Notes: generated by a model from the letters alone, not told the origin. 61,870 bases of DNA from Thermodesulfovibrionales bacterium (GCA_041660325.1 JBAZWR010000003.1:1-61870); one strand, 5' to 3'. Numbered from the stretch's first letter, positions 15,083 through 25,777 are shown. Numbers and translations are program-made.

Positions 15083-15117
15083 AAAGCAAAATGATTTTTT
15101 GAGATTACCATATCCAC

Positions 15118-15290
15118 CTAAACGTTGCAAAACATATTCTCAATTTGAAAGGCGGATATGATAAAAAAACATTTAGAATGCGACAAAAGATAATTCATAT
15201 ACACCTGACGGCACTTTAAACTTAAAGTGCCTTTCAGATAAATGGATATCGAACAGTGTTGAAAGTGCATTAAGGAGTCGCCTAAAAGCT
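15118..15290 (+). repeat. Intergenic structured repeat, copy A (divergent member)
   Basis: It shares the blocks CTAAACGTTGCAAAA, AATGCGACAAAAGA, CTTTCAGA and GCATTAAGG.GTCGC, in the same order, with copy B. It contains a perfect 10-bp hairpin: GGCACTTTAA (15210-15219), loop ac, TTAAAGTGCC (15222-15231). Confidence 0.5.
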
Positions 15291-15326
15291 TTTTTATCAT
15301 ATCTGCCTTTCATTTTATGCAACTTG

Positions 15327-15335
15327 TGATATAAT
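15327..15335 (+). promoter_or_regulatory. Extended -10 element (TGaTATAAT) upstream of gspE
   Basis: TGATATAAT sits 20 nt upstream of the gspE ATG. No clear -35 box or Shine-Dalgarno sequence was seen. Confidence 0.3.
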
Positions 15336-15354
15336 TTATTAACGCGTTGATACG

Positions 15355-16878
15355 ATGATAAGAGACATCCCTTATTTAAACCCTGACGACCTTCCGAAAG
15401 TGCCGTTTGTAATCAACGGCATATCCTCCAGGTTTATTCGTGAAAACAGAATAGTCCCTCTTGATCTTAAAAATAACGTCCTTAAGGTCGTTATGGCGAA
15501 CCCCGATGATACGGCCGCCGTAGACGCCCTCAGGGTTGCCAGCGCCGCAGACGTCGTGATCTATGCTTCAGACAACGGCGCCCTTGAAGAATACCTCTCC
15601 CGGTTCTATGAACAGGAATCCCAGAACATAAACAGGATCATCGAGGACATGGGGGACAAGGGGATAGAATTTATCGGGGAGGAGCAGGAAGACGTCGGCC
15701 ACCTGAAAGACCTTGCTTCGGAGGCGCCTATCATCCGGCTTGTGAACATGCTGATTACGAGGGCCGTGGAGAGCAGGGCAAGCGATATCCATATAGAACC
15801 TTTTGAAGACGAATTAAAAGTGAGATACCGCATTGACGGCGTGCTCCATGATATAGAATCAACACCTAAGAGACTCCAGGCGGCAGTCGTATCGAGGATC
15901 AAGATTATGGCAAAACTCAATATCGCTGAAAGGAGACTGCCGCAGGACGGACGCATAAGGCTCAAAGTCGGCGAGAGTGAATTAGACCTGAGGGTATCGA
16001 CAATCCCGGTACTATATGGCGAGAGTGTTGTCATGAGGTTACTCCGCAAGGAAAGCATAGTTATAGACCTTAACCTTTTGGGGTTCCCTCCTCAAACCCT
16101 TACTTCTTTCGACCAGCTTATCACAAAACCAAACGGCATTATACTTGTCACGGGGCCTACCGGAAGCGGAAAGACCACTACACTTTACGGCGCGCTTGAT
16201 AAAATAAATTCGCCCGATAAAAAGATCATCACTGTTGAAGACCCTGTGGAATATCAGTTAAAGGGTGTAAACCAGATACAGGTTAAGCCGCAGATCGGTC
16301 TGAATTTTGAAAACACCCTGAGGCATATCGTCAGGCAGGACCCTGATATTATAATGATCGGTGAGATCAGAGACCTTGACACCGCCCAGATAGCGATACA
16401 ATCGGCCTTGACCGGTCACCTTGTTTTTTCGACGTTGCACACTAATGACGCTCCCAGCGCCATTACAAGGCTTCTTGACATGGGGGTCGAGAATTTTCTT
16501 CTTTCATCCACCATAAGAGGTATCCTCGCACAGAGACTCGTCCGGGTTATCTGTCCTTCATGCAAAGAGCCGGACCCGTCAATTGCCGCCAGGGAAGAAC
16601 TGAAACTTTTCGGGATCCGGGACGATGTTCAGCTCTATCGCGGGAAAGGATGCGAGACCTGCGCTTTCACGGGATATTACGGAAGGTCGGGAATATTCGA
16701 ACTGCTTGTGGTCGACGATGACGTCAGAAAGCTGATCTTAAAGAACGCCGATTCGAACGCGATCAGGACCGCTGCAAAACAGCACGGAATGAGAACTCTC
16801 CTTGAAGACGGCGCTGAAAAGATAAAAGACGGCGTTTCAACCCTGAGCGAGATCCTCAGGGTAATTCAGGAGGCATAA
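15355..16878 (+). CDS. gspE: Type II secretion / type IV pilus assembly ATPase GspE
   Basis: 507 aa. It has an N-terminal T2SSE_N-like domain, a Walker A motif (GPTGSGKTTT), the Asp/His boxes, and the tetracysteine motif CPSC...CETC. Confidence 0.9.
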   Translation: MIRDIPYLNPDDLPKVPFVINGISSRFIRENRIVPLDLKNNVLKVVMANPDDTAAVDALRVASAADVVIYASDNGALEEYLSRFYEQESQNINRIIEDMGDKGIEFIGEEQEDVGHLKDLASEAPIIRLVNMLITRAVESRASDIHIEPFEDELKVRYRIDGVLHDIESTPKRLQAAVVSRIKIMAKLNIAERRLPQDGRIRLKVGESELDLRVSTIPVLYGESVVMRLLRKESIVIDLNLLGFPPQTLTSFDQLITKPNGIILVTGPTGSGKTTTLYGALDKINSPDKKIITVEDPVEYQLKGVNQIQVKPQIGLNFENTLRHIVRQDPDIIMIGEIRDLDTAQIAIQSALTGHLVFSTLHTNDAPSAITRLLDMGVENFLLSSTIRGILAQRLVRVICPSCKEPDPSIAAREELKLFGIRDDVQLYRGKGCETCAFTGYYGRSGIFELLVVDDDVRKLILKNADSNAIRTAAKQHGMRTLLEDGAEKIKDGVSTLSEILRVIQEA

Positions 16879-18072
16879 TTGGCAGTTTTCTCTTACAGAG
16901 CCACTACAATGCAGGGCGCTATCGTAGAGGGCGTTATAGAAGCAAATGATGAAAAATCGGCGCTTGAGCGGCTAAGAAATGCCGGGTATATACCTCTCAA
17001 TGTTGCGGCGCCAAAGGAAAGCATTAATAAAAAAATCTCCCTGAGATCATCAAAGGGCGATGTCCTGACATTTACGTCGGAACTCTCCGTGCTCCTTGCC
17101 GCGGGATTACCCCTCGACAGAGGTCTCAATATCCTTGCTGAAATATCCGAGAGTGAAGAAATGAAGAATATCGTTCATTCCATCCTGAAATCCATAAGGG
17201 AAGGAAGTTCTTTCTCGGATGCTCTTGCAAAGCACCCCAAGGTATTCCCCAAGCTCTACGTGAACATGATAAGGGCCGGTGAAGCAGGCGGCGTGCTTGA
17301 CGTAGTTTTAGATAAATTGAATGAATTTTTAGAATCTTCAAAGGCCCTGAAAGAGCATATATTTTCCGTCATGATATATCCGATCATCCTCATCCTTACG
17401 GGAGGCGCATCTATCGTTGTACTTCTGACCTTTGTGCTTCCGAAATTCTCCGTCATATTTGCCGAGCTTGGAGGCTCATTGCCCCTGCCCACAAAGATAC
17501 TACTGACTTTCAGCAACGGCCTGAAGGCATACTGGTGGATCGTTGCTCTCGGAATATTTACGGGCTGGCTTGCGTTCAGAAACTATATCAGGTCCGATAC
17601 CGGCAGATATCAATGGGATTCATTTAAACTCAGGCTGATGGGAGATATTATAAAAAAACTCGAAACGGCGAGGTTCTGCAGGACGCTGGGCACCCTCCTG
17701 AAAAGCGGCGTGCCGCTTCTTCAGGCATTGCATAATGCCAAGGACGTCATCAACAATCAGGTCATAGCATCGGCAATCGACGCCGTTTCCTCGGGCGCCA
17801 AGGAGGGCAGAGGGATTGCCGATCCGCTGTCCATGACAAAAATGTTCCCTCAACTTGCCCTTTCCATGATCAAAGTGGGGGAAGAAACCGGACAGCTTGA
17901 TACCATGCTCATGAAGGTTGCTACGACATATGAAAGAAGTCTGAATGTCGCAATAAAGCGATTTGTAACTCTCCTTGAACCGGTCATGATTCTCGTCATG
18001 GGGTTAATCATGGGCTTTATCGTGATCGCAATGCTCCTGGCCATATTCAGCATTGTAGACCTTCCGTTTTAA
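16879..18072 (+). CDS. gspF: Type II secretion platform protein GspF
   Basis: 397 aa. The T2SSF domain is duplicated and there are three transmembrane segments. The gene starts immediately after the gspE stop. Confidence 0.9.
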   Translation: MAVFSYRATTMQGAIVEGVIEANDEKSALERLRNAGYIPLNVAAPKESINKKISLRSSKGDVLTFTSELSVLLAAGLPLDRGLNILAEISESEEMKNIVHSILKSIREGSSFSDALAKHPKVFPKLYVNMIRAGEAGGVLDVVLDKLNEFLESSKALKEHIFSVMIYPIILILTGGASIVVLLTFVLPKFSVIFAELGGSLPLPTKILLTFSNGLKAYWWIVALGIFTGWLAFRNYIRSDTGRYQWDSFKLRLMGDIIKKLETARFCRTLGTLLKSGVPLLQALHNAKDVINNQVIASAIDAVSSGAKEGRGIADPLSMTKMFPQLALSMIKVGEETGQLDTMLMKVATTYERSLNVAIKRFVTLLEPVMILVMGLIMGFIVIAMLLAIFSIVDLPF

Positions 18073-18076
18073 AAAT

Positions 18077-18577
18077 ATGCGGGTCAAAAGATGCAAGATG
18101 CAAAATGATAAATTTGAATTTTGCAATTTGCAAAGTGCATTTTGCATTCCCCGAAGGGGCTTTATCCTTCTTGAACTGATTGTCGTACTCTTTCTTATTA
18201 CACTCATCATGGGTATTGCATTAATCTTTTTTGCCAATTTCCTTCCTTCAAGCAGGCTGGATGCTACGGTCAGGAATATTTCGTCCACTATCAAGCATGC
18301 CCGCTCCCTTGCACGGATAAACAATCAGAGACAGATTGTCACTATCGACCTTGATACAAAACAATACGGCATAGAAGGCCGGGAGATCAAAGATATACCG
18401 GCTGATATCGGCGTCAAGATCATCGATCCGATGTCGGGAGAAATTTTTCAGGGGAAATATCATTTCCTGCTTTATGTTGCAGGTAATATTGAAGGCGGCA
18501 CGATAATCGTGTGGAATGCCAAAAAATCCATAAGCATCCAGCCGGACCCGATAGTGGGAGCGGTGATAATAAAATAG
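18077..18577 (+). CDS. gspH: Minor pseudopilin, GspH/FimT-like (prepilin-type N-terminal domain)
   Basis: It has the class III signal RRG|FILLELIVVLFLITLIMGIALIFF followed by a GspH-like region (ATVRNISSTIKHARSLA). The leader is long, at 20-27 aa. Confidence 0.6.
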   Translation: MRVKRCKMQNDKFEFCNLQSAFCIPRRGFILLELIVVLFLITLIMGIALIFFANFLPSSRLDATVRNISSTIKHARSLARINNQRQIVTIDLDTKQYGIEGREIKDIPADIGVKIIDPMSGEIFQGKYHFLLYVAGNIEGGTIIVWNAKKSISIQPDPIVGAVIIK

Positions 18578-18579
18578 AA

Positions 18580-19008
18580 ATGAACAATGCAAATTGCAAA
18601 GTTAAAAATGAAAAATTTGCGATTTGCATTTCCCGAAGGGGTTTCACCCTCCTCGAAGTCCTCGTAGCCGTTTCGATAATGGGCATTGCGATTGCCGTTA
18701 TACTACAGCTTTTCTCGGCCAACCTGCGCAACATATCCGATTCAAGCGACTATGTAGCGGCGGCGACAAGGGCGGAGGTTAAAATGATGGAGGTGCTGGA
18801 CAACCACAGCCTCGTGGAAAAATCGTACAGTGAAATAACAAACGATGGGTACAGGATGGATATCGCTATAACCGAAACATTAAAAGAGCGGACGGAAAAC
18901 CTTCAGGTGAGGCTTTTCGAAATAGCGTTGACCGTACGCTGGACAAAAGGTACAAAGGAAAAATCCATGACGCTCAGGTCTATGAAGGTTGTCAGAAAAG
19001 AGATCTGA
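18580..19008 (+). CDS. gspI: Minor pseudopilin, GspI-like
   Basis: It has the signal RRG|FTLLEVLVAVSIMGIAIAVILQLF, and its size of about 140 aa is typical of GspI. I chose the ATG at 18580, just after the gspH stop. Confidence 0.55.
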   Translation: MNNANCKVKNEKFAICISRRGFTLLEVLVAVSIMGIAIAVILQLFSANLRNISDSSDYVAAATRAEVKMMEVLDNHSLVEKSYSEITNDGYRMDIAITETLKERTENLQVRLFEIALTVRWTKGTKEKSMTLRSMKVVRKEI

Positions 19009-19022
19009 TTATGCAGAATTAT

Positions 19023-19238
19023 CTAAACGTTGCAAAAACGGCAGAACAGACACAATGAAAAGTCTTCTAATGCGACAAAAGACTATATTCCGAGCACATA
19101 AATGCAGATATAATCTGCGGTGTCTTTCAGAAAAAGGTCATAACGTTGCATTAAGGTACATTAAGGTGTCGCTACAAGACCGTTTCATCGTGTCCGCCCT
19201 GCCGTTTTTAGTAAATTTCTGCAACTGGTGAGATTATC
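19023..19238 (+). repeat. Intergenic structured repeat, copy B (longest copy, inside the secretion operon)
   Basis: By eye it is about 85% identical to copy C over two blocks: 19037-19132 versus 23731-23819, and 19201-19238 versus 23820-23856. Between those blocks it has an extra insert of about 68 nt. The ends AAAAACGGCAGAACAGACAC (19036-19055) and GTGTCCGCCCTGCCGTTTTT (19190-19209) are near-complementary. Confidence 0.6.
19135..19151 (+). promoter_or_regulatory. Sigma-54-like -24/-12 element (aGGtcataacgTTGCAt)
   Basis: The GG-N10-GC spacing is correct and the -12 TTGCA is exact. The -24 element matches only at GG. It lies 89 nt upstream of the gspJ-like ATG, and an NtrC-type activator is encoded nearby. 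Confidence 0.3.
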
Positions 19239-19239
19239 A

Positions 19240-19902
19240 ATGAAAAATGTACATTTAAAAATTTTTGATTTTTTTAATTCCCGCAAGGCGGGGTTTACCA
19301 TTCTTGAGTTGACGATTTCGATTTCATTAATCGGGCTCATTGTTCTGATAATCCTCGGCGCCCTGAGACTCGGATACCGGTCCATAGAGTCGGGGGAAAA
19401 GAGAATAGAATATCTTGAGAGGATAAGGTCCTCGTTTAATATTATCGATTCCCAGATCCAGTCATATTCGGCTTTGACCTATGAAGATCAGGGCGAGAAA
19501 AAACACTATTTCATAGGAAAACGCGGCCTTATGCAGTTTTCTACCAACTATTCCGTGTGGGGAGGAGAGAAAGGGTATGTAATAGCTACATATACCGTAA
19601 CGCCTGCCGAAAACGGGAAACAGGTATTGTATGTAACGGAACATATCGTCGGGTTTGAATCGACAAGAGAGGCAAAACTCTTTGATCGTTTTGACACAAT
19701 ATATTTTGAATATTTCTTCAAAGACCCTACGGAAGAGGCAGGCAAATGGGTGGAAGAGTGGACTGAGGAGGAAAGTGTGCCTGAAAAAGTAAAGATCCAT
19801 TTTATTGAAGGCGCCAAGGATCTGCCGATGATAATCCCCTTGAGGATCAAAACGTCTCTGACGGAACAGGACTGGGATAATGCGGCGGATGATGCGGAGT
19901 AG
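19240..19902 (+). CDS. gspJ: Minor pseudopilin, GspJ-like
   Basis: It has the signal KAG|FTILELTISISLIGLIVLIILG followed by RLGYRSIESGEK...IDSQIQS, a GspJ-like layout. The ATG at 19240 is preceded by GGTGAG. Confidence 0.5.
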   Translation: MKNVHLKIFDFFNSRKAGFTILELTISISLIGLIVLIILGALRLGYRSIESGEKRIEYLERIRSSFNIIDSQIQSYSALTYEDQGEKKHYFIGKRGLMQFSTNYSVWGGEKGYVIATYTVTPAENGKQVLYVTEHIVGFESTREAKLFDRFDTIYFEYFFKDPTEEAGKWVEEWTEEESVPEKVKIHFIEGAKDLPMIIPLRIKTSLTEQDWDNAADDAE

Positions 19903-20875
19903 ACATTTGCTATCTATGGATACAAGACCTGAGAATCGTAAACCTGCCGAGCAGGGGATTGCCCTGTTGATGGTCCTCTGGATCCTGACAATCCTGATGC
20001 TTATCGTCTTTTCCTTTTCCTATATGGCAAGGACGGAAACTTATGCCACCATGTCATTTAAGGGAGGTATTGAGAAAAAATTTCTTGCTGAAGCAGGTCT
20101 TGAGCGAGGGATTATGGAACTATTCTACCGACAATTTTACCGGTCTCAGACTATGGACATCGAGGGCAGGGCAATATGGAAAACGGACGACACCCCCTAT
20201 CAGGGGCAGGTCGGCGACGGGCTTTATACGGTGCGCATAACGGATGAAATGGCCAAGGTAGACATTAACACGGTATCTGAGGTAGTATTAAAAAACCTCT
20301 TTTTAAACTTAGGGGTTCAGGCAGAGGAGGTTGATACCATCGTAGACTCCATAATGGACTGGAAAGACCCTGACGATCTTCACAGACTTCACGGGGCTGA
20401 AAGTGATTATTATATGTCCCTGCCCAATCCATACAAAGCCAGGGACGCTAATTTTGAGACGCTTGAGGAACTTCTTCTTGTAAAAGGGATGACGTCTGAA
20501 ATCCTTTACGGGACGAATGAGAAAAAAGGCGCAATAGATTTTCTTACGCTGCACTCGAGGCAAGGGCAAATCAACATCAATTCGGCGTCGAAAGAGGTAC
20601 TTATGTCAATACCCGGCATTACTCCCGAACTCGCCGATGCGATTATAGAAAGGCGAAAGGATGCGGAGATTAAAGACCTGAGAGAGATCGTCCTGCCGCA
20701 GGAAGCCCTGAACTATTTATCCACAGGGGAAGAAAGTTCACGCTTTACCATAAATAGCATTGGCCATAAAAGCAATGAAGCCGGGGGATATGCAATACGG
20801 GCTACTGTCGCTATTTCCGGTCAGGACAACTATAAAATCGTTTATTATAAAAGCCCTGTAACTATAAAACAATGA
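19880..20875 (+). CDS. gspK: Type II secretion protein GspK-like
   Basis: It has a hydrophobic N-terminus, GIALLMVLWILTILMLIV, that lacks the Glu at position 5. Its size and its C-terminal helix-hairpin-helix-like region (ININSASKEVLMSIPGITPELADAII) are typical of GspK. Confidence 0.7.
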   Translation: MRRMMRSRHLLSMDTRPENRKPAEQGIALLMVLWILTILMLIVFSFSYMARTETYATMSFKGGIEKKFLAEAGLERGIMELFYRQFYRSQTMDIEGRAIWKTDDTPYQGQVGDGLYTVRITDEMAKVDINTVSEVVLKNLFLNLGVQAEEVDTIVDSIMDWKDPDDLHRLHGAESDYYMSLPNPYKARDANFETLEELLLVKGMTSEILYGTNEKKGAIDFLTLHSRQGQININSASKEVLMSIPGITPELADAIIERRKDAEIKDLREIVLPQEALNYLSTGEESSRFTINSIGHKSNEAGGYAIRATVAISGQDNYKIVYYKSPVTIKQ

Positions 20876-22425
20876 ACGGCGCAATCGTCATCGATAAATT
20901 AACGACCTTTGCGGCTTCCTCTGCTATGGCATTCAGGAAGCTGTCCGATCCTCTATGGAGGATGCTAACCTTCAGTCTCGCCGATGATAGCGTCTATCCT
21001 GCAAAAGCGGTTTGCGCTGCCATAGAAAAAGGCGGCCTGTCGGTAGCTTATGGCTCAAGGTTTCTGTCAAGGACCATAGTAAAGGGCGCCAGAGACTATC
21101 CGCTTGAAGAAGGGAAATTCCCACAGCCGGATGTTTTTGCATCCTCCCTTTCCTTGGCCGTCAATGACCTCGGTGCGGTAAAGTCTGATATAACCCTGAG
21201 CATACCAAAGGCATGGGCTATAATTAAGACCACGGAGTTCCCCGTAACGATAAAAGAGAACCTTTCAAATGTTGTCGCCTACGAATTAGACAGGATAACG
21301 CCCTTTAGCGCCGACGATGCGTATTTTGATTTCAAGGTCCTTGGTGAAAAGGAGGAGAAGCTCATCCTCCTGATTATTGCGGCAAAAGCCGACCTGATAA
21401 AACCGTATATAGAAGCCCTCGCGGAAAAAGGACTTAACGTCTGCAGAATAACGGTCAATATATCAGGGATAGAGACCCTCTGCCGCTTTGCGGATAAAAA
21501 ATCGGAGAATGTCTTTCTTGAAATACGAAAAGACGGCTATGAAGGCGCCCTATTCCTGAACGGCATGGTAGCAGGGTCTTTTTCAGGCCCTTTTACTGCA
21601 GAGGACGATACGTCAAAACTGAATGTTATAGCAAAGGAAATCGCCCCCTTAATCGATACCCTGAAAATACGGGAGAAGCCTGCGCTCCTTAACGTTATAT
21701 TCAGGGACAAAAATTCCGCTCTCAAAGAGCTGCTGAAATCGGGGCTGCCCTGTACGGTCAAGGTATTGAATGAAACCGGCGTAAACCTGAAAGTTCCGGG
21801 CTACTCAAACGAGTTCCCCTATGCCGCTGTCGGAGGATTGCTCGAATCATTATGGACAAAAGCGTCGAGCCTGAATCTTCTTTTGAGGGGAGTCCATGAA
21901 AAACAAAAGGTCCCCGTTGCGCTGACCATAATCCTCCTGTTTTCAATTATCATAATGTGGGTCCTCTATATAATCGCGCCTTTGAAAATCGAGGAGAAAA
22001 GGGTACTTGAAATAGACCGGCAGATTGCGCTCAGAAAAGATGAAATCAAAAAGATTGAGGCCCTGAATAAAGAAATAGAGGCGGTCAAAACCGAGCTTTC
22101 CGCGATCAACGATTTCAAGCAGGGCAAGCCGATGGCGCTGAACATCCTGAAAGAGCTTACGGCAATTCTTCCCAAAAGCACCTGGCTGTCAAGGGTCAGG
22201 ATCACGGAGACCGCCGTGGAGCTTGAGGGTTATTCAGCTTCAGCTACCGGCATCCTGTCAAAGCTTGAGGCCTCAAGCTATTTCAAAAAAGCCGAGTTCA
22301 CTTCGCCGACCTTCAGGGATGCAAGGATGAATGCGGACCGGTTTAATATAAAAATGGAAATAGAAGGTTTCACAAAAGAAACGCAAGTGAAAAAAGCGGT
22401 ATCGGGGCAGAATGAAGAAGAGTAA
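20872..22425 (+). CDS. gspL: GspL-like assembly protein with PilM-like cytoplasmic and PilN-like periplasmic parts
   Basis: 517 aa, with its start in an ATGA overlap with gspK. A single transmembrane segment (VALTIILLFSIIIMWVLYIIAPL) is followed by a coiled coil and a PilN-like block, WLSRVRITETAVELEGYSASATGILSKLEAS. Confidence 0.6.
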   Translation: MNGAIVIDKLTTFAASSAMAFRKLSDPLWRMLTFSLADDSVYPAKAVCAAIEKGGLSVAYGSRFLSRTIVKGARDYPLEEGKFPQPDVFASSLSLAVNDLGAVKSDITLSIPKAWAIIKTTEFPVTIKENLSNVVAYELDRITPFSADDAYFDFKVLGEKEEKLILLIIAAKADLIKPYIEALAEKGLNVCRITVNISGIETLCRFADKKSENVFLEIRKDGYEGALFLNGMVAGSFSGPFTAEDDTSKLNVIAKEIAPLIDTLKIREKPALLNVIFRDKNSALKELLKSGLPCTVKVLNETGVNLKVPGYSNEFPYAAVGGLLESLWTKASSLNLLLRGVHEKQKVPVALTIILLFSIIIMWVLYIIAPLKIEEKRVLEIDRQIALRKDEIKKIEALNKEIEAVKTELSAINDFKQGKPMALNILKELTAILPKSTWLSRVRITETAVELEGYSASATGILSKLEASSYFKKAEFTSPTFRDARMNADRFNIKMEIEGFTKETQVKKAVSGQNEEE

Positions 22426-22963
22426 AACACTGGTTATTGCCATACCTCTGATGGTGATCCTTTCCGGGGTCCTACTGTATCAATATGTTTACGTGGGCAT
22501 TCAGACTGAAGTTGCATCAATTAAAGAAAGCCAGTCGATAAAGACGACGACCCTTGAAAAGTATATGGCCCTCATTGCCAAAAAGCCCGAACTTGAGAAA
22601 GAGCTTGCCTCATTGAAAGATGAAAGAAAGGCCGAAGACTCAAAACTGATTGAAGGCCAGACGATTTCCCTTGCCTCAGCCACCCTTCAGGATATGGTTA
22701 AGGACGCGGTCACACAGAGCGGAGGGACAATTTCAAGCGAGCGCATAGCAAAATCGGAGGATTTCGGCAAATTTAAGATAATAAGCGTCAGTCTTGATAC
22801 GGTACTGCCTGATACGAGAACATTAAGGGACATCCTTTATGCCCTTGAGACACGGACTCCTTATCTGACCATAAAGGACGTTGACATAAGGGTCAGGAAT
22901 TACAGGGACCCAAGGGACCAGATAGTAAAATTAGATGTGTCCGCTCTGACGGCAAGCAGATAG
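22412..22963 (+). CDS. gspM: GspM/PilO-like assembly protein
   Basis: 183 aa with an N-terminal transmembrane segment, a coiled coil and an alpha/beta C-terminus. It overlaps the gspL-like gene by 14 nt, and its position in the operon fits this call. Confidence 0.45.
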   Translation: MKKSKTLVIAIPLMVILSGVLLYQYVYVGIQTEVASIKESQSIKTTTLEKYMALIAKKPELEKELASLKDERKAEDSKLIEGQTISLASATLQDMVKDAVTQSGGTISSERIAKSEDFGKFKIISVSLDTVLPDTRTLRDILYALETRTPYLTIKDVDIRVRNYRDPRDQIVKLDVSALTASR

Positions 22964-22968
22964 TTTTT

Positions 22969-23379
22969 TCAGACCTTCTCCGGGAAAAGCATTCGATCTC
23001 TTATACAATCTATAAGTTCGGCAATACCGAAAGGCTTTATGAAACATTGACGGGCGCCTGCGTCCAGGGCTTCGGCAATTTCATCCTGTCCGGCATTCCC
23101 TGAAAAAGCTATTGACGCCACATCACGGTTAAGTTTTCTAATAATCCTTAATGCGCTGATACCCCCAAGCCTGGGCATCTGAATATCGAACAGGAAAACA
23201 TCGTAATGTCCGTCAATAAATCGCAGCACCGCGTCCACGCCGTCATTGACAAGATCCACGACATAACCTTCTTCCTCCAGTTCGCTTTTAATTATAATGC
23301 CGAAGTTCTTATCATCTTCCGCTAAAAGAATATTCACCGGACTTGTCTCCCCGGACATGTTCAGATTTTCTTTTATCAT
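22969..23379 (-). CDS. Single-domain response regulator (CheY-like receiver)
   Basis: ILLAEDD...DVFLFDIQMPRLGG...CFIKPF are receiver-domain motifs. The start may instead be the ATG at 23358. Confidence 0.85.
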   Translation of the reverse strand: MIKENLNMSGETSPVNILLAEDDKNFGIIIKSELEEEGYVVDLVNDGVDAVLRFIDGHYDVFLFDIQMPRLGGISALRIIRKLNRDVASIAFSGNAGQDEIAEALDAGARQCFIKPFGIAELIDCIRDRMLFPEKV

Positions 23380-23563
23380 GTATCAATCCGCCGATCATTG
23401 CGAGCAGTTTTTTTCTGTCGGATGCGGTGAGACCCGCTATTTCCGCACAAGCATTAAAAGCTTCACCCTTGAAAAATGAGACGCTTTCTTTTTTCCGCTT
23501 TTTGTCCCATAAATCCTCAATTGACTGCAATATAATGGCTTCTGCAACATTTTTTACCGCCAT
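23312..23563 (-). CDS. Small hypothetical protein
   Basis: The translation is MAVKNVAEAIILQSIEDLWDKKRKKESVSFFKGEAFNACAEIAGL.... Its 3' end overlaps the receiver gene out of frame. I did not recognise a family with confidence. Confidence 0.3.
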   Translation of the reverse strand: MAVKNVAEAIILQSIEDLWDKKRKKESVSFFKGEAFNACAEIAGLTASDRKKLLAMIGGLIHDKRKSEHVRGDKSGEYSFSGR

Positions 23564-23715
23564 AATCGCACCTCTCAAACAGAGCATTATACAGGTAGTA
23601 TTGCAAAACCGATGCCGGCGTGCAACTTATTGATTTTTATAGCTTTGAGAATTGGGATTCAAAAACCGTTCCGGCAATATGCCATAATTGAAGGGCGTAT
23701 TGTCCTGAAGGATTG

Positions 23716-23856
23716 CCCAAACGCCGTACAAACGGCAGTGCAGACACGATGAAAAGTCTTGTAATGCGACTATATTATATGCACATGAATGTAGACATAA
23801 CCTGCGGTGTCTTTCAGAAGCCGTTTGTAATAATTTTTGCAACCGGTGAGATTATC
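23716..23856 (+). repeat. Intergenic structured repeat, copy C (short form)
   Basis: The perfect termini ACAAACGGC (23728-23736) and GCCGTTTGT (23820-23828), together with the inner pair AGACAC/GTGTCT, enclose about 60 nt. Its 3' motif GGTGAGATTATC overlaps the histidine kinase stop codon. Confidence 0.6.
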
Positions 23857-25777
23857 CCGGGAGGACTATACGGAAGGCGGCGCCCTTGCCTTTTTCCGAA
23901 GTTACGCGGATGGAACCCTTATGGTCTTTTATTATTTTATTTGCAATCGAAAGACCGAGCCCTGTTCCGCCCTTTTCGGATTTCGTTGTAAAGAATGAAT
24001 CGAATATTTTTTCGGTTAACCCGGGAGGGATACCCGCGCCGGTGTCGCTGATTATGATAAATATTGAGCCGCCTTCTCCCGGTTCTTTCGATTTCGCGTT
24101 TGAAGCAGACGGGCATATGCCTGTTTCGAGCGTTAAAGCGCCTCTGTCCTCCATAGCGTCGAGCGCATTCAAAATAATCGCAAGAAATACCTGTCTTAGC
24201 TCCCCCTCGCTTCCGTGCGCCGTCAGCATCCCATGATATTTTTTTATAATAGCGACGTCTTTTAGCCTCCCCTGAAATCCGATAAGTTCAAGGGTCTTGT
24301 CAAGCACATAATGGATATCTATCTCTTTTTTTTCATAGATAGTTTTCCTGACGAAAGACAACATGCTCGTCGTAATACCCTTACACCGGACTACTTCCTG
24401 AACAATTATATCTAAGTAGTTTTGAAACAGCTCTTTCTCGAAACGTCCCTTTTTCAGCCTGTTGAGAAGCCCTTCGGCGCAAGCCGCGATTGTAGCAAGA
24501 GGATTGTTTATCTCATGGGCAATGCCGGAAGCCATTTGACCGAGAGCGGCAAGCCTTTCGCTCATAATAAGGCGGATTTCCTGCTCTTTCTTGTCAGTGA
24601 TATCCTGGACCGTTCCAAACATCCTGACAGGCTCATCGCTCTCACCGAACGTTACCTCTCCCTGTCCGTGAACGAATCTCACGGCGCCGTCAGGCAGGAC
24701 AATGCGATGATCAATATTGTAGGTTCTTCCATACAACGCCTCATTCACCGCCCTTTTAAAGAATTCCCTGTCTTCAGGGTGTATGGAATTCAGAAATGCC
24801 TCATAGGTAGTGCCGGACTGCTTTGGAGTCAACCCGAAAATGCGGTAGATCTCGTCGGACCAGTAAAGCTCATTGCTGCGGATGTCCCAGACCCAGTTTC
24901 CAATGTGCGCGATCCGCTGTGCTTCGGCAAGGCTTGCCTCGCTTCTCCGCAGCGCCTTTTCCGCCTTTTTACGCTCGGTAAGGTCCCTGACGATCGTATG
25001 CAGCCTTCCGTCCTCAAGACTGGCAGCGCTTACTTCCACGCTTCTAAGGGTCCCGTTTTTGTGCCGGAATCTCCTTTCAATAACCACCTTTTCACCCGAG
25101 AGGACTTCCTTGTGTCTCAGAGGAACGGCAACAAGGTCCTCATCAGGTATAATGTCCCGGATATTCATTTGAAGAAGTTCCTCCCGTAAAAACCCGAGCA
25201 TCTTGCAGGCCGTAGAATTCACATCTCTGATGTTGGCCTCAGGGTCCAGAATAAATATCCCGTCGGAAGCCTGTTCAATAAGCATGCGATACTTTCTTTC
25301 GCTCTCCCGGAGAGACTGATTGGCCTCTACCAGCTCTCCGGTCCGTTCCCGGACCCGGTTCTCAAGCTCCAGGCATGCTTTGTCTTCAGATACTTTACGT
25401 TCAATCGCATACCGTATGGAGCGGACCAGAAGATCGCTATCGACCTGTCCTTTAACAAGATAATCCTGGGCGCCTTCCTGCAGGGCTCTAACTGCCAGGT
25501 CTTCATCCTCCAACCCGCTCATTATCACAATCGGTTTGCCGGGGAGAATTTCACATGTTTTAACGATTGTCTCAAGTCCCTGCACATCCTGTAGAAAAAG
25601 GTCAAGGAGGATGACATCGATCCGTTCCCTGTCAGGCAATATATGGCATTTCTCCAAGCTGTCGGTATTTATTAATTCGCAGTTGAAAGAATGCGCTCCG
25701 TTAAGCATTTCTTTGACAAGATAAGCATCCGCAGGGTTATCCTCGATGAGGAGTATTTTCAAACGTCTGTTATTCAT
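23852..25777 (-). CDS. Hybrid sensor histidine kinase (REC-PAS-PAS-HisKA-HATPase)
   Basis: 641 aa. It has an N-terminal receiver (ILLIEDNPAD...ILLDLFLQD), two PAS-like regions, the H-box IAHEINNPL, and G-boxes (DTGAGI, GGTGLGLS). Confidence 0.9.
   Translation of the reverse strand: MNNRRLKILLIEDNPADAYLVKEMLNGAHSFNCELINTDSLEKCHILPDRERIDVILLDLFLQDVQGLETIVKTCEILPGKPIVIMSGLEDEDLAVRALQEGAQDYLVKGQVDSDLLVRSIRYAIERKVSEDKACLELENRVRERTGELVEANQSLRESERKYRMLIEQASDGIFILDPEANIRDVNSTACKMLGFLREELLQMNIRDIIPDEDLVAVPLRHKEVLSGEKVVIERRFRHKNGTLRSVEVSAASLEDGRLHTIVRDLTERKKAEKALRRSEASLAEAQRIAHIGNWVWDIRSNELYWSDEIYRIFGLTPKQSGTTYEAFLNSIHPEDREFFKRAVNEALYGRTYNIDHRIVLPDGAVRFVHGQGEVTFGESDEPVRMFGTVQDITDKKEQEIRLIMSERLAALGQMASGIAHEINNPLATIAACAEGLLNRLKKGRFEKELFQNYLDIIVQEVVRCKGITTSMLSFVRKTIYEKKEIDIHYVLDKTLELIGFQGRLKDVAIIKKYHGMLTAHGSEGELRQVFLAIILNALDAMEDRGALTLETGICPSASNAKSKEPGEGGSIFIIISDTGAGIPPGLTEKIFDSFFTTKSEKGGTGLGLSIANKIIKDHKGSIRVTSEKGKGAAFRIVLPG

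Follow-up and report, generated by a model that had tools for sequence, protein, structure and literature searches.

The window analysed here (the whole stretch of DNA, 61,870 nucleotides) lies on contig C3 of a metagenome-assembled genome (MAG) of a Thermodesulfovibrionales bacterium, an uncultured groundwater organism whose assembly comprises 2.85 Mb in 212 contigs and is 92.7% complete. It carries an operon resembling those of type II secretion systems and type IV pili (T2SS/T4P), with genes for GspE, GspF, three pseudopilins, GspK and a PilM/PilN-like protein, followed by a histidine kinase open reading frame (ORF) on the opposite strand. Three related repeats, copies A, B and C, are found upstream of gspE, between two of the pseudopilin genes, and between the small ORF and receiver genes and the kinase gene, respectively (Table 1). 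These repeats belong to a family, termed A/B here, that very probably consists of non-coding, non-autonomous bacterial DNA transposons, that is, miniature inverted-repeat transposable elements, or MITEs.

The three copies had been recognised in an initial annotation of the DNA, and their kinship is confirmed: they lie on the same strand and their similarity exceeds chance. Their locations also stand, with the exact ends corrected to those in Table 1. Copies B and C, for which an identity of about 85% had been estimated, share blocks of 65 nt (80%), 52 nt (85%) and 25 nt (92%), and copy A is divergent but block-sharing, as described, with shorter blocks in common with copy B (for example, 15166–15190 with 19058–19082 at 80%). 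Long internal inverted repeats are present in copies A and B (Table 1); copy C is internally deleted. The predicted RNA folds reach −68.4 kcal/mol for copy A (z = −9.5 against dinucleotide shuffles) and −63.7 kcal/mol for copy B (z = −5.5), with a weak −34.1 kcal/mol for copy C (z = −1.9).

BLAST searches of the genome of origin with the three copies returned 158 match places, which merged into about 120 elements of approximately 135–250 bp, dispersed across the 2.85 Mb; the further copies that the initial annotation proposed to look for are thus abundant. Copy B retrieved about 35–40 further copies at 72–87% identity and copy A more than 40 at 75–95%, the A-type places amounting to about 70 in total over the same range of identity. 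The elements form two subfamilies, A and B, of about 210–250 bp each, together with deletion derivatives, the shortest of which retain little beyond both termini. Thirty full-length B copies align from CCTAAACGTTGCAT to TTTTTGCAACTGGTGAG, with a sharp loss of similarity beyond either end. The termini are imperfect inverted repeats of 13 nt, designated L (CCTAAACGTTGCA) and R (TGCAACTGRTGAG), as seen when CCTAAACGTTGCA is set against CYCAYCAGTTGCA, the reverse complement of the right end, and one terminus of each type was found in 57 of 60 elements. Inside them lie a subterminal inverted repeat of 25–30 bp, able to form a long hairpin, and a partly conserved core (AATGCGACAAA ... CTTTCAGA ... 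AGTACATTAWGGWGTCG).

The A copies have the same two types of terminus and the same core blocks as the B copies (AATGCGACAAA, TAACCT, CTTTCAGA and AGTACATTAWGGWGTCG). The long stem differs by subfamily, being TGAAAGGCAGACATGATAAAAAA in A and AAACGGCAGGGCAGACACGATGA in B, each mutually compensated; the compensatory changes and the significant similarity on which the initial annotation had made its structural interpretation depend are both present. Among the 58 elements with two recognisable termini, the R-type terminus stands 5' of the core in 23 A copies and the L-type in 8, whereas in B the L-type does so in 25 copies and the R-type in 2. These opposite arrangements imply that the centre has flipped between the long inverted arms, or that ends have been exchanged between copies. 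The flipped core of most A copies would be the product expected of recombination across the arms.

The flanks of the elements bear the mark of insertion. In 24 of the 58 elements the left and right 4-bp flanks are identical, compared with a mean of 4.2 and a maximum of 12 when the partners were permuted in 10,000 trials; other duplication lengths showed no excess over expectation in the same set. The flank logo is AT-rich and reads T-W-W-A. Empty sites were then sought in a sister species (genome G001) with 23 constructs that joined 120 nt of left flank, including one target copy, to 120 nt of right flank. Five of the 23 match G001 contiguously over 239–241 nt at 95–98% identity (C128:1345, C16:1279, C87:5640, C186:3680 and C15:33225), and several more do so with small indels. 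Base-level alignment shows that at four sites the gap in G001 corresponds to the element plus 4 bp, one target copy being kept (TTAT, TTTA, TAAA and TTAA); the site at C87:5640 is similarly empty, with a slightly different junction. At one site, TATGGA-TTAT-[242 bp]-TTAT-CCGAGCC in the genome of origin faces TATGGA-TTAT-CTGAACC in G001. Another site retains a 35-nt remnant in G001 from which the entire hairpin part is deleted, and at least seven sites are filled in both genomes. The family has therefore been active since its host species split from the sister species.

Among the genomes of the genus compared, high copy number is confined to the genome of origin and G001; copies are lacking, or are reduced to terminal fragments, in three to four further species of the genus (G002–G005) and in 35 additional relatives. 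Two genera besides this one show enrichment of the terminus CCTAAACGTTGCA: G007 has 31 matches (control, 2) and G017 has 11 (control, 0). A copy from G007 retains the termini and the GCGAC/GTCGC boxes and has a TAAA duplication; several two-sided substitutions mark its stem, and its central palindrome is different. Within the genome of origin the elements are intergenic, the overlap with crudely called genes being 30 nt or less for 49 of 58, and their R and L ends adjoin gene starts and stops equally (30/29/27/27), without orientation bias. Six of the 58 R ends and eight of the 58 L ends (the latter ending in TTTAGG) lie 4–13 nt before a start codon that opens at least 80 amino acids (aa), which would fit insertion into AT-rich spacers and survival where a purine-rich stretch stays in place. 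In the mechanism proposed, a DDE transposase acting in trans would cut and paste the elements into AT-rich 4-bp T-W-W-A targets and duplicate the target. The MITE, one of several possibilities named in the initial annotation, is accordingly the one borne out by the many genomic copies, the terminal inverted repeats, the 4-bp duplication and the precise empty sites in the sister species.

Several observations weigh against this interpretation. A perfect target duplication is missing in copies A and C. The stems are 97% paired, above the partner-shuffled control, and are closer to consensus than the loops (94–96% versus 87–88% identity), while the core boxes persist across genera; these features point to constraint beyond the terminal 13 nt and beyond the simplest picture of a decaying MITE. 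A search for an autonomous element between A/B termini gave none in the genome of origin, in G001, or among the terminus pairs inspected in G007, in G017 and on contig C40, so that the family of the transposase has to be inferred. Finally, the A/B termini share only their first 6 nt, CCTAAA, with the IS1380-like insertion sequence (IS) of genome G006 described below.

An alternative is a structured RNA family, whether a cis-regulatory leader or a small RNA, in which the hairpin and core would be selected as RNA and the genomic spread would be secondary. The folds of copies A and B are very stable, the stems of the two subfamilies differ in sequence and both pair, the pairing within each family exceeds the partner shuffle, the core boxes are kept between subfamilies and in another genus, and metatranscriptome contigs contain MITE sequence. 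Those contigs, however, are unstranded and stem mostly from other copies or from relatives; in one run the sequence continues out of the upstream pseudopilin gene and covers 19 nt at the start of copy B. No Rfam match was obtained in the window at gathering thresholds, and among nine element-bearing loci searched at E <= 5 the sole strong match was the signal recognition particle RNA, away from the element, with four others at chance level; the Rfam search recommended in the initial annotation thus yielded nothing relevant. Relative to gene starts and stops the elements point either way, and the A core lies in both orientations relative to the termini (8 versus 23). Mismatches in the stems are G.T rather than A.C in 35 against 15 cases in A but in 15 against 15 in B, so there is no consistent strand signal. 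Presence and absence in the sister species at precise target duplications speak for transposition rather than gene conservation. Related copies can, moreover, exceed partner shuffles without selection on structure. We conclude that there is a constraint on the hairpin or subterminal repeats of copies that transposed, and do not conclude that there is a strand-specific RNA; an RNA family as the primary nature of the repeats is very improbable.

Two further types of palindromic element were considered, both connected with Y1 transposases. Repetitive extragenic palindromic (REP) elements or REPINs, moved by a domesticated Y1 transposase (REP-associated tyrosine transposase, RAYT), are likewise palindromic, intergenic and high in copy number, and six proteins with a Y1_Tnp domain are encoded in the genome. 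REPs, however, make no target duplication, whereas a 4-bp duplication is present here together with terminal inverted repeats and a length of about 210 bp. The MITE, the 30-nt module and the 16-nt palindrome described below are all missing from the flanks of the Y1 genes; these flanks yielded no more than one or two matches in the rest of the genome, and no match to these repeats. The REP alternative raised in the initial annotation can thus be given almost no weight. Palindromic elements derived from IS200/IS605, which would insert 3' of a fixed tetranucleotide and carry subterminal hairpins without a duplication, would account for the left flanks that often end in a WWAC-like sequence, the long subterminal hairpins and the Y1 genes, but not for terminal inverted repeats, for empty sites that retain exactly one 4-bp copy, or for flanks that are conserved on both sides and match within elements far more than between them; such an origin is hardly credible. 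The same holds for a small protein gene, represented by a 58-codon frame (MKSLLMRQ...) of subfamily B. The frame is open across almost all of copy B and of the B consensus, yet it is intact in 15 of 27 B copies and broken in the other 12, differences are spread over the codon positions (115/121/105) with no excess at the third, and the homologous frame of subfamily A contains a stop (read by eye), which leaves a coding function with next to no likelihood.

The Y1 proteins themselves form a group of five to six paralogues (C25:1303-1629, C41:443-769, C13:25426-25755, C67:8409-8735 and C80:2-337) of 280–340 aa, with an N-terminal Y1 (IS200-like) domain and a C-terminal helix-turn-helix, and are multi-copy in relatives too.

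With the A/B repeats taken as MITEs, the transposase that moved them would be of the IS1380 type (prokaryotic relatives of piggyBac) or of a related DDE family that duplicates 4 bp. An IS1380-type partner is tentatively suggested by the duplication of 4 bp, by the CC termini and by a sibling MITE family, D; this assignment is plausible but stops short of being probable. The genome of origin has no DDE_Tnp_1 (PF01609) or IS1380 (NF033539) match; fragmented MAGs commonly lose IS copies. Termini found there outside known copies are remnants, mini-elements or chance matches only. A 1.07-kb terminus pair on C40 was discarded as an autonomous element, as it encloses a shikimate-dehydrogenase-like gene (translation read by eye), and the terminus pairs in G017 and G007 enclose housekeeping genes only. 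An IS982-like and an IS1380-like ORF of G001 were rejected as partners on account of ends that differ from the A/B termini.

The bacterial family is rich in IS1380-family elements, of which G006 has about 30. In G006 and G009 they have CCC termini and 4-bp duplications (CTAG and TTAG), and their ends (CCCAGATAATTCATAAA) match those of the sibling D family over about 17 nt (loci L178 and L179). The IS1380-like element of G006 mentioned above encodes a 509-aa transposase (NF033539, 139 bits; PF13701, 68 bits) and has termini CCTAAAAAAAGC with AT-rich 4-bp flanks; IS1380 termini in relatives begin with CCC or CCT and are likewise accompanied by 4-bp flanks. The D family of the genome of origin comprises 37 near-full copies of about 250 bp with the terminal repeat CCCGGATTATTCATAAA, and its 4-bp duplication (CTAA, TTAA or TTAG) is exact in 14 of 27 cases against 5.4 expected. 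The A/B family shares with IS1380 the length of the duplication and termini starting with CC, and differs in the target (TWWA rather than the CTAG/TTAG of the IS1380 elements observed here) and in having no transposase gene between the termini examined. The layout of a short terminal repeat plus a subterminal inverted repeat with unequal spacers may resemble the architecture of piggyBac ends. IS1380 is the prokaryotic group that has been used as an outgroup for piggyBac (PMC10813416).

In every class, about half of the A/B copies contain 30 additional nucleotides, TCCGCACTCAGGCGGATTCGCCGAGGAGAA, located at an identical point behind GGWGTCG. The 30-nt module, TCCGC(A)CTCAGGCGGATTCGCCGAGGAGAA, occurs letter-perfect at 48 places of the genome of origin, in surrounding elements that differ by 5–25%, and at 95 places when up to three mismatches are allowed on its 22-nt core. 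Its hosts are 55 A/B copies, 30 members of family D and four of a further family, with a few stand-alone cases, and it is common to at least three unrelated repeat families of this genome; it is absent from all three copies in the window. The exact 22-mer is found in more than 20 named Thermodesulfovibrionia MAGs. Of the 301 genomes of the class, 40 contain the core with up to one mismatch, spread over 23 of the 151 genera; the control gave no matches, and two species of the host's own genus lack the core. In the genomes of the class the module forms the centre of many different palindromic repeats, in either orientation. Such a patchy distribution points to mobile DNA rather than to a conserved host site. 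The module has no Rfam match, is not linked to Y1 transposase genes, does not lie inside the IS1380 loci examined and was not encountered in the literature searched. An origin from clustered regularly interspaced short palindromic repeats (CRISPR) was dismissed, as no array with a similar repeat was found.

The hairpin and core boxes conserved across genera, the apparent exchange of modules and the 30-nt motif could together mark a shared functional unit that spreads horizontally on varied MITE scaffolds, which would make the family more than decaying selfish DNA, although this is unlikely. Such a unit might serve a conserved factor as its binding site or as a hairpin, of RNA or DNA, that it recognises, for instance in transposition, nucleoid organisation or mRNA processing. 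Were this so, an insertion such as copy B would be a regulatory part of the operon, with its hairpin as a processing site and a donated ribosome-binding site.

Other repeats accompany the family in this genome. A perfect palindrome of 16 nt, CCCGAAAGCTTTCGGG, occurs at 47 places (for example, C35:2724, C18:7468 and C52:9551). In many copies it replaces stretches of MITE stems at varying positions, but it is not confined to them and appears, among other settings, in a repeated tRNA-like unit on C9 (10480, 10653, 11239 and 21120). A third repeat family, starting with AACTGCGGATGTCCAAAATAAATTTATTTTTCGATACGATAGTGTACTTATATAGATGTGTTAC, often abuts MITEs; it numbers about 74 near-full copies, which are about 94% identical, and G001 contains 17 copies or more.

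Copy B is a full-length member of its subfamily between perfect ATTA duplications. The 3' motif that the initial annotation had assigned to the repeat has to be divided: GGTGAG belongs to the element, and ATTATC lies outside it, ATTA being duplicated target and TC flank. The GGTGAG does precede the ATG at 19240 by 7 nt, as had been described, and the ORF that begins there carries the N_methyl prepilin motif. The insertion is shared by G001 at the orthologous site with 96–97% identity, similar to that of the flanks, and hence predates the split of the two species. In G002 and G003 copy B is absent, the distance between the genes being only 81–83 nt, and the downstream pseudopilin gene starts at the stop codon of the upstream gene. 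Removal of copy B and one ATTA restores a 16-nt spacer, TTATGCAGAATTATCA, before the ATG, so the insertion hit the spacer. Copy B would have been tolerated in the operon because it landed in this spacer and because its GGTGAG end replaces the ribosome-binding context of the downstream gene. The long hairpin may still affect the mRNA, for example its processing or polarity.

Copy A belongs to the minor isomer of its subfamily. It lacks a clean target duplication, and its right terminus is truncated after ATGCAAC. Its right boundary follows from comparison with G001, whose corresponding site has the flank TTTGTGATATAAT and holds another element. The adjoining TTGTGATATAAT is found also in G001 and is thus ancestral flank; it follows that the right terminus is truncated and that the extended −10-like box upstream of gspE was not supplied by the element. 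A donation of a promoter to gspE by copy A was rejected on these grounds, the TGTGATATAAT box being ancestral flank and not part of the MITE. Copy A is old or damaged.

Copy C has lost 7 nt and about 70 nt internally, and its left terminus is degenerate (CCCAAACGCCGTA). Its site is empty in G002, where 17 nt stand in place of 156 nt in the window. The kinase stop codon had been placed in an overlap with the 3' end of this copy; the two are indeed adjacent, and the stop lies in the 4 bp directly after the element, its TAA (minus strand, 23852–23854) falling inside the right-hand target copy. Copy C would have been tolerated because the duplicated target preserved this stop codon.

The repeats had been described as bracketing and interrupting the secretion operon. 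About 120 places in 2.85 Mb correspond, by a Poisson estimate, to some 0.37 copies per 8.7 kb, so that one or two clusters of three copies are expected genome-wide, and the three copies within 8.7 kb are a mild local cluster with no special association. Two copies of another element, 131–165 nt long with terminal inverted repeats GATGAACTCGTAAAAAGTCGTCAT..., are present on contig C24 of G001 (locus L190). Its sites there are the copy-A site (~15117; about 165 nt) and a position near 18600, between the first two pseudopilin genes; the copy at the copy-A site has an 8-bp duplication, CATATCTG. These insertions indicate that the AT-rich spacers of the operon are hot spots that have been hit repeatedly. 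The bracketing has no functional meaning, and the operon is a target hit more than once rather than a partner. Two 52-nt runs rich in TGCAAA / ATTTTGCA form an inverted pair at the starts of two pseudopilin genes (18091–18142 and 18578–18629), and similar runs adjoin several MITEs elsewhere in the genome. In G002 (contig C30, locus L191), about 1.7 kb of extra DNA separates the gspE and gspF homologues in comparison with the window.

Table 1. Genes and repeat features of the window, with example positions of other repeats in the genome of origin
Feature	Position	Strand	Basis or remarks
T2SS/T4P-like operon (host context)	15355-22425	+	Pfam matches
GspE	15355-16878	+	Pfam T2SSE, 481 bits
GspF	16879-18072	+	Pfam T2SSF, 209 bits
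Pseudopilin genes	18077-18577, 18511-19008, 19240-19902	+	Pfam N_methyl
GspK	19880-20875	+	Pfam T2SSK
PilM/PilN-like gene	20872-22425	+	Pfam PilN/PilM_2
Histidine kinase ORF	23852-25777	minus	HisKA, HATPase_c, PAS and receiver domains
Copy A, A-subfamily minor isomer (L-type terminus CCTAAACGTTGCA 5' of core), without 30-nt module	15117-15323	+	BLAST, G001 comparison
Copy A subterminal inverted repeat, left arm	15146-15176	+	Pairs with 15282-15312, 31 nt, 90% complementary
Copy A subterminal inverted repeat, right arm	15282-15312	+	Pairs with 15146-15176
Copy B, full-length B-subfamily MITE, 211 bp, between two pseudopilin genes	19022-19232	+	30 end-to-end B alignments
Copy B target duplication ATTA, left	19018-19021	.	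Flanks cagaATTA/TCTAAACG...GGTGAG/ATTAtcaatg
Copy B target duplication ATTA, right	19233-19236	.	Flank sequence and family-wide duplication statistics
Copy B subterminal inverted repeat, left arm	19034-19060	+	Pairs with 19183-19209, 27 nt, 85% complementary
Copy B subterminal inverted repeat, right arm	19183-19209	+	Pairs with 19034-19060
GGTGAG, final six bases of copy B R terminus, in Shine-Dalgarno position	19227-19232	+	7 nt before ATG 19240
Copy C, B-subfamily MITE, between small ORF/receiver genes and histidine kinase	23716-23850	+	Alignment blocks with copy B
Copy C right flank ATTA	23851-23854	.	Left flank ATTG 23712-23715, 3/4 match
30-nt module, examples	C13:22320-22560, C67:4157-4398, C145 ~1673 (minus strand)		Genome of origin
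D family, examples	C145, C87:1318, C24, C8		Genome of origin
Third repeat family, examples	Flanks of C5:5874, C16:18818, C133:5565, C78:12254		Genome of origin

The A/B family resembles the Correia (NEMIS) elements of Neisseria in being small, non-coding and high-copy, with terminal inverted repeats and a short AT-rich duplication, and also in its intergenic location near start and stop codons, co-transcription with neighbouring genes, long hairpin and coexistence of full-length and deleted forms. Correia elements duplicate TA and have terminal repeats of 26 bp, and their processing by RNase III and creation of promoters are documented. The A/B family, by contrast, has a 4-bp TWWA duplication, imperfect termini of about 13 nt and a long inverted repeat that is subterminal, and shows no sequence similarity to them. 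The enterobacterial REP/BIME repeats, present in hundreds of copies and linked to RAYT genes, are also short, palindromic and intergenic; the A/B family is set apart from them by its target duplication and by the lack of RAYT linkage, although the 30-nt module resembles a REP unit in size and hairpin form. Elements of the ERIC/IRU, RUP and MITEAba12 type are non-autonomous and IS-derived, with terminal inverted repeats and target duplications (MITEAba12: PMC6382973). They are similar to the A/B family in derivation and in restriction to a lineage, and can alter the expression of adjacent genes, an effect that is putative for A/B. The parent IS families and duplication lengths are other than those of A/B, no sequence is shared, and the A/B family is distinguished by its mosaic nature, with interchangeable stems, a flipped core and optional hairpin modules. 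Literature searches by taxon and MITE and with the element sequences returned no matches, and the family appears to be undescribed, though of a well-known kind of element and ordinary selfish DNA.

The approximately 120 A/B copies, together with at least three further repeat families, account for many of the unusual hairpins between genes, the spurious small ORFs and the contig breaks in MAGs of the Thermodesulfovibrionales, and the repeats should be masked ahead of RNA or promoter prediction. The family also points to IS1380-type (piggyBac-related) MITEs in bacteria, on which no paper was found in the literature searched. Of all its parts, only the 30-nt module might open up something new. 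For the host, copy B shows an operon tolerating a 211-bp hairpin between two pseudopilin genes, and the family as a whole preserves a natural, dated history of transposition in an uncultured lineage from groundwater, with insertions common to both sister species alongside polymorphic ones.

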